A DNA stretch of 64,000 bases from Nitrosopumilaceae archaeon. Its GTDB lineage: Archaea > Thermoproteota > Nitrososphaeria > Nitrososphaerales > Nitrosopumilaceae. The notes below the pieces were generated by a model. It searched no databases. It was not told where the DNA came from and saw nothing but the letters and a program-made list of their open reading frames with translations. Shown here one piece after another: positions 10,478 through 58,821 of this stretch (position 1 is the stretch's first letter; each line of letters starts with the position of its first letter). Position numbers and translations under genes: made by a program. The stretch lies in contig CBDCCK010000002.1 of assembly GCA_965214835.1 (NCBI GenBank), positions 1,792,001 to 1,856,000 on the forward strand, in the 5' to 3' direction.

Positions 10478-10908
10478 TGATCAAACCTCATCCCGTTTGA
10501 CGTCCTGGAGAATCCCAGGCTTTCATAGAATCCTAGGACGCCATCAAGGCAGTCAAGGATCGTCTTGTAGCACCCACGGTTCCGGGCATAGTCCAGTGCG
10601 AACTCTACCAGACTTTTGCCTATGCCCTTGCCCTGCATCCTGTCTGCCACTACCACGTCCTCGATGTGTCCCACCCTGCCTCCTCCGTGGATGAACTTTT
10701 GCTCGATTAGAAGCGTGATGGAGCCCACAATCCTGCCGTCCATCTCTGCTACGAAGATCCTGTGGTTCTGGTCTGAGAGTATGGATGAGAGGATCCCCCG
10801 TGCCTTCCCCGGATCCAGATCGCTTGCCCTTCTGAGGGAGTCCAGCGACTCTAGGAACCCGTTTTGCAGATCCGCCTCCCTAATCTCCCTGATTATGACA
10901 TCTGGCAT
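10468..10908 (-). CDS. GNAT acetyltransferase, glucosamine-phosphate N-acetyltransferase-like
   Basis: IEQKFIH, GHIEDVVV, QGKGIG, GCYKTILDC, FYE. Confidence 0.9.
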   Translation of the reverse strand: MPDVIIREIREADLQNGFLESLDSLRRASDLDPGKARGILSSILSDQNHRIFVAEMDGRIVGSITLLIEQKFIHGGGRVGHIEDVVVADRMQGKGIGKSLVEFALDYARNRGCYKTILDCLDGVLGFYESLGFSRTSNGMRFDHQR

Positions 10909-10909
10909 G

Positions 10910-11611
10910 CTAGATCTTCCCTAGTTTCTGATAGAACCGCTGGTATGCCCTGCGGTACGATGCCTTGTCACCTATGTCGACAAAGCCCTTCTTTATGGTA
11001 TAGCTGTCCACTTGCCTTTTCTGCGATACCGCCTTTTTTACCACGCTGTCCATCCCGTACGGCCTGTTTTTTGGGATGTATGAGAGCACCCCCGGGTTCA
11101 TGACATAGCATCCCATGTTGATGTCTGCCTTGATCTCCGGCTTTTCGTTCCAGCCCGTGACCCTTCCTGACCTTGACGTCTTGATGACGCCGTACTGGAT
11201 GTTGGTCTTGTACTCGTATAATCCCATCGTGATAAACGGCCTCCTTTTTTTGTGCTGCTTTATCATGCTTCGCAGGCTAAAGTCAAAGACCGAGTCGCCG
11301 TACATGCAGACAAAGTCCTCATCCAGTAACTCTTCTGCGGTCTTGAGCTGGCCTGCAGTTGCAAGCGGCCTTGCAGATGCCGCGTACTCTATGTCCACCC
11401 CGAAGTTACCACCGTCCTCAAAGTAGTCCTGGATTGTCTTTCTCAGGTAGCTTACGCACAGCACGACTGATTTTATGCCGTTTTTCCTGTTCCACTCAAT
11501 TAGGTGTTCCAGCAACGGCTTTTCGCCCAGCGGCAGCATCGGCTTTGGCATGAATGTCGTGTATGGCTGAAGCCTTGTGCCCAGTCCCCCCGTCAGGATT
11601 ACCGATTTCAT
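10910..11611 (-). CDS. Sugar-phosphate nucleotidyltransferase
   Basis: GGLGTRLQPYT..PKPMLP, GDS, EKP, DIG. Confidence 0.9.
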   Translation of the reverse strand: MKSVILTGGLGTRLQPYTTFMPKPMLPLGEKPLLEHLIEWNRKNGIKSVVLCVSYLRKTIQDYFEDGGNFGVDIEYAASARPLATAGQLKTAEELLDEDFVCMYGDSVFDFSLRSMIKQHKKRRPFITMGLYEYKTNIQYGVIKTSRSGRVTGWNEKPEIKADINMGCYVMNPGVLSYIPKNRPYGMDSVVKKAVSQKRQVDSYTIKKGFVDIGDKASYRRAYQRFYQKLGKI

Positions 11612-12596
11612 AATAGATCCTAGTCCTGTGTGTATTTATGTTGAGTTGTGGAATCTTTGGGAGGTCCGCCTCACGGCGCCGCCCGCGCGGTGGTCAGAAA
11701 TTGGTCCTATGCCCAACCTAAGCGATTACGATAGCAGTCTTTAATCTGCTATAGGCAATCCAAGCATTATCAACACATGCCAAGTACGAGGTCACCTATA
11801 CTGATGACCATTGAAAATTTCGCCTGATTACACATCTTGCAAAGGTTTATAGCTCTCCACCATGACCCTCTTGGCATGAACAAGACGAAAATCCTCACGG
11901 ATGCCATGCATGTCGAAAAGGATCTCAAGATTCACACCAGAATCATGGCGGTGCGCTCCGTACTGCTTGGCAACACCACTGCAGACCGCAGAGATTGCCG
12001 ACGTGACACAGCGTACAGTACAGATGTGGATCGAGAGGTTTGAGCTTGACGGCATCGACGGCCTCCGTGACTCCCCCAACAGGGGCAGAAAACCAAAGGT
12101 TCCGGTCGGCAGGATAAAAAAGATCGCCACAAAGTTGCGCAGGACGGAAAAGCTCACCCCGAAGAAGCTGTGCAACTGGGTGCGCCGCAGGCTGCATGTC
12201 ACATACAGCGTGGGAAGCATCAGAAGAATCCTGCGCACGATGGGATTCTCGCTAAAGACGTCAACCACCAAGCTGGCAGATGCTGCCGACGAAGGCGGTA
12301 AGACGGTGGCAAAGGGCGGCAAAAGACACGATTGCGCTTGCAAAAAGGCGCGGATTTAGGATAACTGTACAGGACGAATCGATATTCGTCAGTACGGGAA
12401 GGGACGGCAGAAAGTTCTGGTCGCCAGTGGGGGACAGGATCTAGGTGCAACGATCCGGCAGAAGGGAGCGCGTCGTGGTATACGGAACGATTGCAGACGA
12501 CGGAACCAGGCTGATGCGCACGTACGACAAGTTCAACAGTGCAAACTTTGTGCGTTATCTTAAACAGGCGCACAAAAAGTGGGGAAAGGTTCTGAT

Positions 12597-12689
12597 GTAC
12601 GAGGTCACCTACCCCTGCCAATCAGGCACGAACTGACATCTATGACTATGATTTTCATGCCTAGTCAACAGGGGGACGTGACCACATAC
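12597..12689. mobile_element. IS66-derived MITE (family D)
   Basis: Ends gtacgaggtcac / gtgaccacatac, 8-bp TSD GTTCTGAT; relative at 50323-50415. Confidence 0.85.
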
Positions 12690-12842
12690 GTTCTGATGGT
12701 GATGGACAACGCAGCACAGCACAAGACCAAAAAGATCCGCAGATACCTAAAGAAAAATCCCGACGTTGTCTTGCTGTACCTGCCGGTAGCTAGGCCGGAG
12801 CTGAGCGCCATAGAGGCAGTCTGGAAGGATGCCAAGTACAGG

Positions 12843-12952
12843 CTGGTCACGTCGGCCTTTTATGACACGGTAGATCACCCGATACCTCCGCGTAGACTGC
12901 CATCGCCATACCCATCTGGTCACGTCGGCCTTTTATGACACGGTAGATCACC
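12843..12952. repeat. 37-bp exact direct repeat flanking a 36-bp unique insert
   Basis: ctggtcacgtcggccttttatgacacggtagatcacc at 12843-12879 and 12916-12952. Confidence 0.9.
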
Positions 12953-14075
12953 TCAAAAGGGCCGTCTCGGAATACTTTAGGACGTGCTCCATCAAGATTG
13001 ACATCTACAAGTATCTTGAGCGCAGCGTGTAAGGGAGGCGAAATTTTCAATGATCATCAGTATAGTTTTGACGTGTTTTGACAACCTGCTTAACATATTG
13101 CGATCATGCTGATCAAATACGATGCCTGCATGGCATCAGTACCATGAAAGGCCGTCGACCCACATACCGCGAACTAGAGGCCACAATCGTATCAGTCACA
13201 GACAGAATAAGCACGCTAGAAAATAACCAAAAGGCAATGTGCAGGGTGATAATCGAGAAGGACAGGATAATCGAGAAGGACAGGATAATCGAGGAACAAG
13301 GCAGGCGGCTCCTGTACTACGAGAACTCGCCACCGTCTGCAGAATCACTAGAGTACAAGAGGCAAAAGGCGCAGCGGAAAAGGGAGAGGGTCAGTAACCG
13401 TGGCAACGGTAGCAACGGCAGCAGTAGTGGCAACAATAATGGCACCGGCAAAAAGCCGGGAGGCCAGAGGGGCCACAAGGGGACATCCAGAAGACACGAC
13501 CCCCAGAAGATGGTGCTTCATACGTTCCAGGACAACGACGGGGCGTGCTCGCCGGTGTGCATGTGCGGGAGGGCCATGGACATAACTGCCCTGATACGGG
13601 ACATCATCGACTTAACCGGTCCGGATGACAGAGACGCGGCACATAACCGAGCGTGCCACATGCAGACTGTGCGGCATTACGATATCAGCAGACGACGGAC
13701 TCCCAAGGAGGGACAGGTACGGCAAGCACATGATCTCCCTTGTGTCTGCCTTGCGCGCAAGGCACATGCCGCTGCAGTCCGTGGCAGACACGCTCAAGGA
13801 GCTTTCCGGCAGGAGCATCGCCAAATCGACCGTAATCAACATGATCGGAGAGGTATGCGACTCTATGCAAAAGCCGTCAGGCGCGATCCTGGGCGGCATC
13901 AAGAGATCATCCAACGTCAGAATAGACGAGACTGCGGCCAGCATGAACGGCAGCTGTATATGGACATGGACTGCCGAGACGGACAACGGCGTGTTTGTCA
14001 AGTACAATACGAGCAGGGGCGCACTGTTCCTGTACAGGCACATGGAGGAGTATGGCAGAATAGTGACATCTGACA

Positions 14076-14204
14076 GGGGTTGTCGCCTAATTCCACTTAT
14101 TTGACCCAATCTGCACGTTTTTCTGAATTTCCGCCCTTTTGCACGCCTGATCATATGGCATCTCAACGGTTTTCGGGGATTCTAGCGAATTAGGCGACAA
14201 CCCC
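14076..14204. mobile_element. MITE family B, 129 bp
   Basis: TIR ggggttgtcgcctaatt, 9-bp TSD CATCTGACA. Confidence 0.9.
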
Positions 14205-14273
14205 CATCTGACAAGTATTCGGTGTATGACAGGTTCAACGGGGAGGACAGGCACCAGCTGTGCTGGTCGCACG

Positions 14274-14402
14274 GGGGTTGTCGCCTAATTCGCTAGAATC
14301 CCCGAAAACCGTTGAGATGCCATATGATCAGGCGTGCAAAAGGGCGGAAATTCAGAAAAACGTGCAGATTGGGTCAAATAAGTGGAATTAGGCGACAACC
14401 CC
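14274..14402. mobile_element. MITE family B, 129 bp, inverted copy of the previous one
   Basis: TIR ggggttgtcgcctaatt, 9-bp TSD GGTCGCACG. Confidence 0.9.
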
Positions 14403-14882
14403 GGTCGCACGAGCTGCGCGTATCAAAATACGCGGCGCAAAAGCAGGGCTCCCCGCTGTTTGCGGGAATACTGTACGAACAGCTTCGGCAGCTGTACCGT
14501 AGCGCCGTCAGGGCCGCAAGGAGGAGGAAGGACAGGGGCAAGGATCTGCGCAGAAGGTTCGAGTCCTGGCTGCGCAACATACTGTCCGGGTACCGGGAAG
14601 GCACGGACGACTTCGTCCTGGGCCCGGTACTGCGCAGACTGACAAGCTCGCTGCCGCACCTGTTTACGTTCCTGGAGCACGACGGCGTGCATCCCACAAA
14701 CAACGCCGCAAAGCGTGCCCTGTCCGGCGTCGTCTTCCGCAAGATAAGCGGGCAGATCAAGGGAGAGGAACTCTGGATGAGGAGGTGGTCGCAGTTTATG
14801 ACGTGCATACTGACATGGAAGGCAAGGGGCGGATCCGTAGCAGACGAGGTCATGAAACTGGTTTAGGAACGTGACCTCATAC

Positions 14883-57711: not shown

Positions 57712-58821
57712 TCAACCCCTCCGCTGTCTGGTCCTTGAGATCAGCATGCGGTACATTAACAAGCGTGTGAGACGGCGCACGGGCCGGCTCGCAAACACAA
57801 CCCCCAGCACCCGGGCTGCAAGCCTTCCAGCCGCGCCATCATGCGTACCGTACACGAACGAGGTCAGGATGTGATCGGTGTGACGGCACGCCGTCATGAC
57901 AACCATCCTGCGTCCGATTCTCCTGCTGGCCTCGGCATATCTCCGTGGAAAGATGGGTATGTAGGCCAGTTCCCGGATTAACAAGCGTCCGATTCTCCTG
58001 CTGGCCTCGGCATATCTCCCCTGCTCCGGCCCGCTCAGCCTGTTGACTGTGAGCTCTAGTATCTTGCACCTCATGTTGTGCCTCTCTCTCGGGCTTGGCC
58101 GTCCCTGCCCATCGTGCTGCCTGTACCCATATATGATCCCCGGAACGTGGTGGAACCTGTACCCGTGATTTATGGTCAGCCTCATACAGAACTCCTGATC
58201 CTCGCCCCGGTCAAGGCTATCGTCAAAGCCCCCGACATCCTCAAGAATTGACCTGTGAAGGATGGAGACGCACATTTGTCCAAAGGACATGCTGAATATT
58301 GAAGCACCCTGCTCCATCGCGTCCATGGAGTTGTCCATGTAGTATGATACCGTCTTGCCGTTTGGCTTCCCGTCGGATCCCAGCATCTGGAGATCAAAAA
58401 ACGGTATTGTTTTGGTAATCGACGAGGAGTCGAGCCCCTCGGCTGCCCCGACAAGCCTCTCCACTGCGTCAGGATACATTATATCATCAGAGTCCAGGAC
58501 GGCAAGCCACTTCCCGGTCATGTGGGCTATCCCCGTGTTGTAGGCAGCCGCGCGTCCCGCGTGCTCTGTGTTGACTATCCTGATCCTGTCAGAGTACCGC
58601 TCCAGTATCTTGGCCGATCCGTCCGTGGAGCCGTCGTTTACTGCTATGACCTCGATGTTGCCGTATGTCTGTGCCAGTGCGGACTCTATGGACTGCATCA
58701 GGTACCTTTCCCCGTTGTAGACCCGGATTAGTAGCGACACCTTGCCGCTCTTGCCGATCCGTGCTACGCCACCTCCCTCCAGTAATTCTTTCTTTGATTC
58801 CATGCTAGACAGTGTTGTCAC
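57712..58821 (-). CDS. Glycosyltransferase family 2
   Basis: VSLLIRVYN, VNDGSTD, LDSDD, VGGFD, ED.EF, YRQH. Confidence 0.9.
   Translation of the reverse strand: MTTLSSMESKKELLEGGGVARIGKSGKVSLLIRVYNGERYLMQSIESALAQTYGNIEVIAVNDGSTDGSAKILERYSDRIRIVNTEHAGRAAAYNTGIAHMTGKWLAVLDSDDIMYPDAVERLVGAAEGLDSSSITKTIPFFDLQMLGSDGKPNGKTVSYYMDNSMDAMEQGASIFSMSFGQMCVSILHRSILEDVGGFDDSLDRGEDQEFCMRLTINHGYRFHHVPGIIYGYRQHDGQGRPSPRERHNMRCKILELTVNRLSGPEQGRYAEASRRIGRLLIRELAYIPIFPRRYAEASRRIGRRMVVMTACRHTDHILTSFVYGTHDGAAGRLAARVLGVVFASRPVRRLTRLLMYRMLISRTRQRRG
57910..58019. repeat. 35-bp exact direct repeat flanking a 40-bp unique insert (in frame)
   Basis: gcgtccgattctcctgctggcctcggcatatctcc at 57910-57944 and 57985-58019. 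Confidence 0.9.

Follow-up and report, generated by a model that had tools for sequence, protein, structure and literature searches.

Results and discussion

A 73-bp expansion in a decaying IS630 element

The window, a 64,000-nucleotide stretch, belongs to the larger of the two contigs that make up this genome (3.21 Mb, C2; the other, C1, measures 13 kb). Ribosomal protein genes of archaeal type identify the organism as an archaeon. Positions up to 64,000 without a contig label refer to the window, and larger ones to C2. The locus of interest lies in a degenerate IS630-family element on the plus strand (11800-13066), which was delimited by BLAST against about 20 other copies and carries terminal inverted repeats at both ends. 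Its transposase gene is split by frameshifts, by a 92-bp MITE-like insertion and by a spacer-like unit that sits near the 3' end of the gene. The IS630 transposase profile NF033545 matched two fragments of the host gene (E 8.4e-19 and 3.7e-13); as the broken gene survives only in pieces, neither match reaches the cut-off set for the whole protein. The second match covers 12699-12878, aligns to profile positions 229-286 of 299 and bears out the statement of an earlier note on this DNA that the repeated segment of the unit is transposase coding sequence.

A repeat search of the window returned a perfect (100%) 37-nt direct repeat at 12843-12879 and 12916-12952, with a start-to-start distance of 73, enclosing a 36-nt spacer-like insert at 12880-12915, all on the plus strand, the insert having the sequence quoted in the earlier note. 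The frame reads ...LVTSAFYDTVDH and resumes after the right copy of the duplicated target, where the codons specify LKRAVSEYF. A perfect 37-nt repeat at this spacing is far beyond chance, since a scan of the 3.2-Mb chromosome gave only 0-3 such pairs at most periods outside 71-76. The division into a 37-bp duplication and a 36-bp insert, as first proposed, holds for the apparent lengths but not as a unique split: the C before the left repeat is identical to the C that ends the insert region, the same applies at the other end, and the boundary is thus ambiguous by one base. A 36-bp duplication with a 37-bp insert fits equally well, and the left copy is most likely a 36-nt duplication at 12843-12878. 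Directly upstream lies the leader-like flank GTACAGG (12836-12842, plus strand), while the native CRISPR leader ends in TTACGGG before its first repeat; for a single unit this RGG flank is suggestive only.

The undisturbed site that removal of one repeat and the insert would restore also exists in the genome. Queries comprising the 100 nt that end in the first repeat and the 100 nt that start with the second were compared by BLAST with the whole genome. In 18 other IS copies these two flanks overlap by just the 37-mer and no insert is present (offset 0), and among the IS copies compared the 73-bp expansion (offset 73) occurs only in the copy described here. The unit at 12843-12952 therefore has a pre-integration (empty) site in 18 other copies of its element.

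The MITE-like element in the same IS copy (12598-12689, strand not assigned) is flanked by a 9-bp direct repeat, GTTCTGATG, at 12589-12597 and 12690-12698. BLAST against the chromosome revealed well over 100 copies of this 92-bp segment at 75-99% identity, other IS copies join across the site and read-contig joints are of the 'skips 101' type there. This insertion is separate from the CRISPR event. Next to the IS630 copy lies another broken mobile-element gene (13078-14866). Its open reading frames at 13612-14166 (minus) and 14312-14866 (plus) start with the same ~30 residues and two shorter frames around 14087-14391 share a peptide on opposite strands, which suggests a putative inverted duplication around 14080-14410.

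The unit shares the geometry of the native type I-G CRISPR array

Spacer integration by Cas1-Cas2 duplicates a target of repeat length, as the earlier note states, so that the dimensions of the unit can be compared with those of the CRISPR system of its own genome. The only cas1 homologue present is an intact Cas4g/Cas1g fusion without stops (754.8 bits against NF049935, cut-off 560), accompanied by an intact Cas2 (59.4 bits on PF09827). According to NCBIfam matches, the locus runs from Cas4g/Cas1g through cas2, the CRISPR array and an IS630 copy to Cas3g, Cas8g2, Cas7g/Csb1 and Csb2; the Cas8g2 match (100.8 bits) remained under its cut-off of 125. The features that define type I-G membership are met, with the Cas4/Cas1 fusion, Cas2, Cas3g, Cas8g2, Cas7g (Csb1) and Csb2 beside the array, and together they form a complete type I-G locus. 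A lineage without cas1 and cas2 would have refuted the reading of the unit as a stray spacer that the earlier note had put forward; instead, both genes are intact and the full effector set is present.

The array (C2:2482178-2492954) contains 148 identical 36-bp repeats. Its spacers range from 35 to 41 bp, with 37 bp (54 spacers) and 36 bp (45) ahead of 38 (18), 39 (16) and 35 (7). The modal spacer of 37 bp and the modal period of 73 reproduce the period of the 12843-12952 unit, whose insert of 36 or 37 nt falls inside the native spacer-length distribution and whose target duplication, 37 nt with 1 bp of ambiguity, matches the native repeat length of 36 bp. The agreement with the genome's own array that had been anticipated from the window alone was found in repeat length and spacer length, and the period agrees as well.

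A genome-wide class of about 44 units

The chromosome was scanned, after removal of the two native arrays, for pairs of windows matching at no fewer than 31 of 34 positions at every spacing of 45-130; accepted repeats were no longer than 48 nt and inserts no shorter than 20 nt. Counts rose sharply at periods of 71 (2), 72 (18), 73 (11), 74 (4), 75 (8) and 76 (3), whereas most other periods in the 45-130 range yielded 0-3 pairs; the 5-7 pairs at 84, 114, 126 and 129 fit protein repeats. From 51 candidates at spacings of 68-80 we retained 44 and dropped seven, among them low-complexity or tandem cases (65000, 112405 and 1727198), an exact second copy of the 1921439 unit (1966990), a pair at a spacing of 68 (2608784) and one with a 27-nt repeat (2139397). 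The length peak among isolated repeat-insert-repeat units, on which the earlier note had staked its interpretation, was accordingly found, at periods of 72-76 and repeats of 36-37 nt over 44 loci.

The curated set consists of 44 distinct units, each with a repeat and an insert of its own. Their starts on C2 are 204691, 558201, 717492, 737481, 854475, 1033730, 1066066, 1238770, 1301520, 1625426, 1652870, 1736693, 1804843 (the 12843-12952 unit), 1849910 (57910 of the window), 1921439, 2037185, 2159111, 2201735, 2209451, 2227481, 2245958, 2260966, 2332658, 2336271, 2360350, 2366624, 2369026, 2426599, 2445029, 2453982, 2466942, 2607642, 2793872, 2810966, 2814926, 2908848, 2927710, 2950434, 2990713, 3063417, 3116143, 3125695, 3127496 and 3161274. 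All remain candidates; simple tandem duplication may account for a few of them, 558201 and 2037185 for example. The repeats are perfect in 39 of the 44 and mostly 36 (15 units) or 37 nt (12) long, with further cases of 35 (5), 38 (4) and 39 nt (2). If the true duplication is 36 nt, roughly 44% of units should show a chance extension of one or more bases at one end or the other. No third repeat copy was found within 200 bp of any of the 44, and hence none has grown into an array.

An additional unit with a 42-nt repeat, a 37-nt insert and a period of 79, which was not counted, is present in four copies of a repeated element (C2:1308256, 1624026, 2343414 and 2692095). Transposition may have multiplied an original stray spacer here; likewise, 1921439 and 1966990 are two copies of one unit. 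The placement of the units along the chromosome is uneven (KS p 3e-4): 14 of the 44 fall between 2.20 and 2.47 Mb, a stretch immediately upstream of the cas locus (2.48 Mb) that surrounds a GC-skew minimum at 2.36 Mb, where we do not name a terminus because the cumulative skew is noisy.

A candidate at C2:35551 (32-nt repeat, period 73) was considered as a grown neo-array and rejected, as it is built on a perfect 22-nt palindrome, AATGTGGCAATATTGCCACATT. Twelve copies of this palindrome occupy C2:34545-35722 at spacings of 73 (five times), 72, 105 (three times), 98, 126 and 253. By its repeat sequence it is no CRISPR array; an array of binding sites or iterons are possibilities.

Within the family, a Cas4g/Cas1g above the curated cut-off was detected in five of 41 genomes searched, the present one included. 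A sister genome of the same genus (G004) has the same Cas4g/Cas1g fusion and an array of 36-bp repeats with a modal period of 73. Nevertheless, no genuine unit was found in the 780 kb of it that were scanned (the first 380 kb of the contig and 400 kb on the upstream side of its cas locus), the two hits both being of low complexity, whereas the same scan gave 16 in the equivalent 400 kb of the present genome. At the density seen here, about 10.7 units would be expected (Poisson P(0) = 2e-5). Possession of a type I-G system alone therefore does not explain the burst, which is a property of this lineage and not of the system as such. Any reason for the number of events here is a matter of inference. 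The adaptation genes may be expressed more strongly, a host factor that guides the complex to the leader may have been lost, or purifying selection may be weak in this genome, which also carries ~20 copies of this IS and >100 copies of the 92-bp MITE.

Origin of the inserts

Seventeen inserts have a match of at least 26 nt elsewhere in the genome. In three of these cases (1736693, 1921439 and 1966990) the match is a second copy of the unit itself. The other 14 inserts are copies of ordinary chromosomal sequence, seven of them full length at 100% identity, three full length at 97% and four partial or more diverged. Self-derived sequence thus accounts for 14 of the 44 unit inserts but, at comparable length on the chromosome, for none of the 147 array spacers (Fisher p 2e-10). 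Such a contrast is to be expected if self-derived spacers kill the cell from within an expressed array and do no harm at a stray site. Furthermore, eight of the 14 self protospacers are flanked by a TTN PAM (TT at -3,-2 or AA at +2,+3) compared with an expected 12% (p 6e-5), and one more fits TTN if the one-base boundary ambiguity is allowed.

Three donor sites (900193, 902180 and 906373) lie within 6.2 kb of each other. The stretch C2:900127-906409 includes orc1/cdc6 (900127-901338), flanked by the genes for the large and small subunits of PolD, and is where the cumulative GC skew peaks (900498); it is likely the replication origin. No formal p-value is given for the origin donors, since the 6.2-kb window was not specified beforehand. 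CRISPR adaptation is known to favour replication-linked sources, a result reportedly due to Levy et al. 2015, and the donors at this likely origin represent a prespacer source of that kind.

The source of the insert at 12880-12915 could not be assigned. It is unique in its own genome, where the best other match found by blastn-short spans 14 nt. It had no exact match in viral, metagenome or genome contig collections, and no blastn match in phages, nor was it found in 100 genomes of the family when up to three mismatches were allowed. Diverged sources escape exact-match scans, and without a protospacer the PAM of this insert cannot be checked. The insert of the second unit in the window (57910-58019) was likewise not found in viral or metagenome contigs.

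Target choice and effects on reading frames

Periods divisible by three occur in 26 of the 44 units, compared with 42% of the native array periods (binomial p 0.018), an excess that we read as a trace of selection. In 21 of these 26, the covering open frame is longer by exactly one third of the period than with the unit removed; the gene remains open and gains 23-25 extra residues. Units with other periods shorten their frames, for instance from 390 to 220 residues at 717492. At 12843-12952 the host gene was already broken. The second unit of the window (57910-58019, plus strand; 35-nt repeat, 40-nt insert, period 75) illustrates the in-frame type: its host, a family-2 glycosyltransferase gene on the minus strand (57712-58821), keeps an open frame with 25 residues added (RYAEASRRIGR...RYAEASRRIGR), and paralogues of the glycosyltransferase do not have the duplicated segment. 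Similarly, an HtrA-like protease carries a unit whose duplicated segment is absent from the orthologues in all four of four same-genus genomes, an example that is illustrative only because the alignment gap exceeds the unit in length and falls in a variable linker.

Of 88 unit sides, 13 have the trinucleotide RGG immediately before the duplication, where ~3 are expected (p 1e-5). The native leader ends in ...TTACGGG, that of the sister genome in ...GTCAGG and the left flank of the 12843-12952 unit in ...GTACAGG; only two of four native leaders examined end in RGG. Likeness of the targets to the leader plus repeat averages 15.66 of 46 positions against a control of 14.40 (sd 0.36; 0 of 300 controls as high), and the 12843-12952 target, with 15 of 46 against the control mean of 14.4, is no better than random. 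Orientations assigned by eye from the PAM and from RGG agreed for two and disagreed for one of the three units that were readable both ways. The 36-bp stagger nevertheless stays constant at unrelated sequences, from which we infer that it is set by the protein complex and not by the repeat sequence.

Support from assembled reads

Six public runs from two studies contain about 55% of the sampled words of the region 10500-14500; only assembled (Logan) contigs were available for them. Four runs were placed on 12300-13300, and a contig extends over the insert bin in one of them (X2, depth 23.2) and in none of the other three. 'Skips 73' joints in three runs are what the other IS copies would give. 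Contig support for the 12843-12952 unit is therefore weak and settles nothing: as a multi-copy IS fragments contigs, the three runs of four without a contig are no evidence of absence. With read support this thin, the case against an artefact rests on the genome-wide pattern.

Probable off-target integration and competing explanations

The observed geometry, the genome-wide peak, the intact cas genes, the self-derived inserts with their TTN PAM and the empty sites lead us to regard the unit at 12843-12952, with high confidence, as an off-target (ectopic) spacer integration by the genome's own type I-G Cas4/Cas1 fusion and Cas2. This confidence applies to the class; for the 12843-12952 unit it is slightly lower because its protospacer is unknown. 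Cas4/1-Cas2 is the enzyme by inference, without an integration assay. Mechanistically, the complex would carry a 36-37-bp prespacer and perform two staggered strand transfers 36 bp apart in the 3' part of the transposase gene rather than at the leader-repeat junction. Fill-in of the two single-stranded 36-nt gaps would then duplicate the target on both sides of the new spacer and yield a repeat-spacer-repeat product with the native 73-bp period. The insertion was presumably neutral, given that its host is a dispensable and already decaying IS copy, and may so have been retained as one of about 44 events fixed in the chromosome. The apparent 37-nt duplication counts against this scheme, which needs either a one-base coincidence or a one-base slip of the ruler. 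Overall, a natural off-target spacer acquisition fixed in the genome, the first of two options offered in the earlier note, is supported by the period of 73, the 44-unit peak, intact cas1/cas2 and the empty sites, and the second, an unknown mechanism of short-DNA capture, is not needed.

Replication slippage or break repair could in principle have produced a local tandem duplication with unrelated filler between the copies, as short tandem duplications with filler occur in many genomes, and our scan itself gave unrelated pairs at 84, 114, 126 and 129, most of them in repetitive proteins. Such a process predicts neither duplications of 36-37 nt with inserts of 35-40 nt at 44 loci, equal to the native repeat and spacer lengths, nor TTN beside the donor sites, and the sharp length peak argues against it; we consider it very improbable. 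An error of assembly or polishing has to be weighed because the unit resides in a multi-copy IS, which is hard for assemblers, and because a contig over the insert appeared in only one of four public runs. Yet the insert bin is covered by a contig of depth 23 in that run, the assembly offers no other occurrence of the insert sequence as the source of a mis-join, and an artefact would not give 44 units of native period, PAM-flanked donors and an excess of in-frame cases, so that only a very small chance is left to this explanation.

Cas1-family casposases also duplicate their target. A casposase-like enzyme, some unknown recombinase or a very small mobile element that duplicates 36 bp of its target might for that reason be invoked, the more so as the sister genome with the same I-G system has no units in 780 kb. 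What speaks against any other integrase is that the sole cas1 homologue of the genome is the CRISPR one, that the inserts share neither ends nor sequence, that fourteen of them are plain chromosomal copies and that the duplication has the length of the CRISPR repeat; we regard this possibility, too, as very slight. Finally, the repeat-spacer-repeat architecture with native period might be taken to mean that the units work as orphan mini-CRISPR arrays whose transcripts are processed into crRNA. Each repeat, though, is local gene sequence whose likeness to the native one is near chance (15.66 vs 14.40 of 46), a third repeat is found in 0 of 44 and a third of the units carry self-matching inserts that would be autoimmune if used. 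The 12843-12952 unit in particular, with its repeat of transposase sequence, an identity of 15/46 and a single spacer, does not qualify as a bona fide CRISPR array, and a function of this kind is extremely improbable.

Relation to known systems

For the type I-E system of Escherichia coli, papers citing Nivala, Shipman & Church 2018 describe off-target integration by Cas1-Cas2 genome-wide (PMC6698737, PMC7054753, PMC11788318, bioRxiv 10.1101/148544), and the same passages state that such events could give rise to new arrays and that two other species provide circumstantial evidence. As far as these secondary accounts go, the two cases have in common that spacer-sized DNA is integrated outside an array, and they differ in that the E. 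coli events were rare and required over-production of Cas1-Cas2 in the laboratory, while ~44 events have been fixed here in a wild archaeal genome. Unlike in E. coli, the present system is a type I-G with a Cas4/Cas1 fusion, many of its events lie in genes and in frame, and none has grown to an array.

The type I-U/I-G module of Geobacter sulfurreducens (Almendros et al. 2019, PMC6547450) is a further case for comparison: there, Cas4/1 selects a TTN PAM, found for about 60% of unique spacers, the predominant spacer length is 36 bp and the repeat ends in AGC. On that basis, a Cas4/Cas1 fusion with Cas2, the TTN PAM, the predominant 36-bp spacer and a repeat ending in AGC are common to both (PMC6547450). 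The integration described there was scored at a leader-repeat construct. Cas1-Cas2 of Pyrococcus furiosus, according to the excerpt available, integrates in vitro at non-CRISPR off-target sites that share sequence features with the repeat (PMC6698737). It thus resembles the present case as an archaeal integrase inserting at non-CRISPR sites, but those sites are described as repeat-like, whereas the likeness found here is only marginally above random and mainly consists of the RGG at the boundary. The term 'ectopic spacer acquisition' has been used in Streptococcus thermophilus and S. mutans for acquisition away from the leader-proximal repeat and inside the array (PMC7999890, PMC8265633); judging from the available extracts, these events took place at genuine array repeats, while the present units are in unrelated genes.

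A literature search that left most subscription journals and supplements outside brought up no account of a natural genome with dozens of fixed stray spacers, nor of a type I-G system producing them. The mechanism is hence of a known kind, and its natural scale appears unreported in the literature searched. Taking all parts together, we consider it probable that this chromosome is a natural record of a genome-wide off-target Cas4/1-Cas2 burst of at least 40 fixed events. It would preserve the unselected output of adaptation (~1/3 self, mostly PAM-selected, with a donor hot spot at the origin), since stray spacers are not used for interference. The integrase would have acted as an endogenous mutagen that broke some genes and added 24-25 in-frame residues to others, and in type I-G it would contain a protein ruler.

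The interest of the units lies in their natural scale, in the self-derived and origin-biased inserts and in the in-frame survivors. Off-target integration has so far been treated as a rare laboratory side reaction with circumstantial natural evidence, at least as the citing papers present it. Here, self/non-self discrimination by adaptation alone, before autoimmunity takes effect, becomes measurable from sequence (14/44 vs 0/147), as does the prespacer source in an archaeon, in this case the origin of replication. The location of the ruler, in the protein or in the repeat, can be addressed with ~44 fixed events, and the mutational cost of an active integrase is measurable from such a genome. 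The units also represent raw repeat-spacer-repeat seeds for new arrays, though none has grown here, and they show how CRISPR machinery can lengthen proteins by short peptide segments.

Further observations around the CRISPR loci

The cas4/1-cas2-array module directly follows a ribosomal protein cluster (L6). In the same region, an open frame for ribosomal protein L24 (C2:2475820-2477028) has 402 aa, of which the L24 profile spans only residues 4-113. The IS630-family transposase gene between the CRISPR array and cas3g (C2:2492980-2494000, 339 aa) is intact and could alter the expression of the interference genes. A second, small array on the minus strand (C2:135821-136367) consists of eight diverged copies of the type I-G repeat with a period of 72-74. 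Spacer 41 of the main array matches the 13-kb contig at C1:6366-6401 in 36 of 37 positions, with the lone mismatch at spacer position 1, beside TT; this contig may be a plasmid or virus that coexists with the system by way of an escape mutation.
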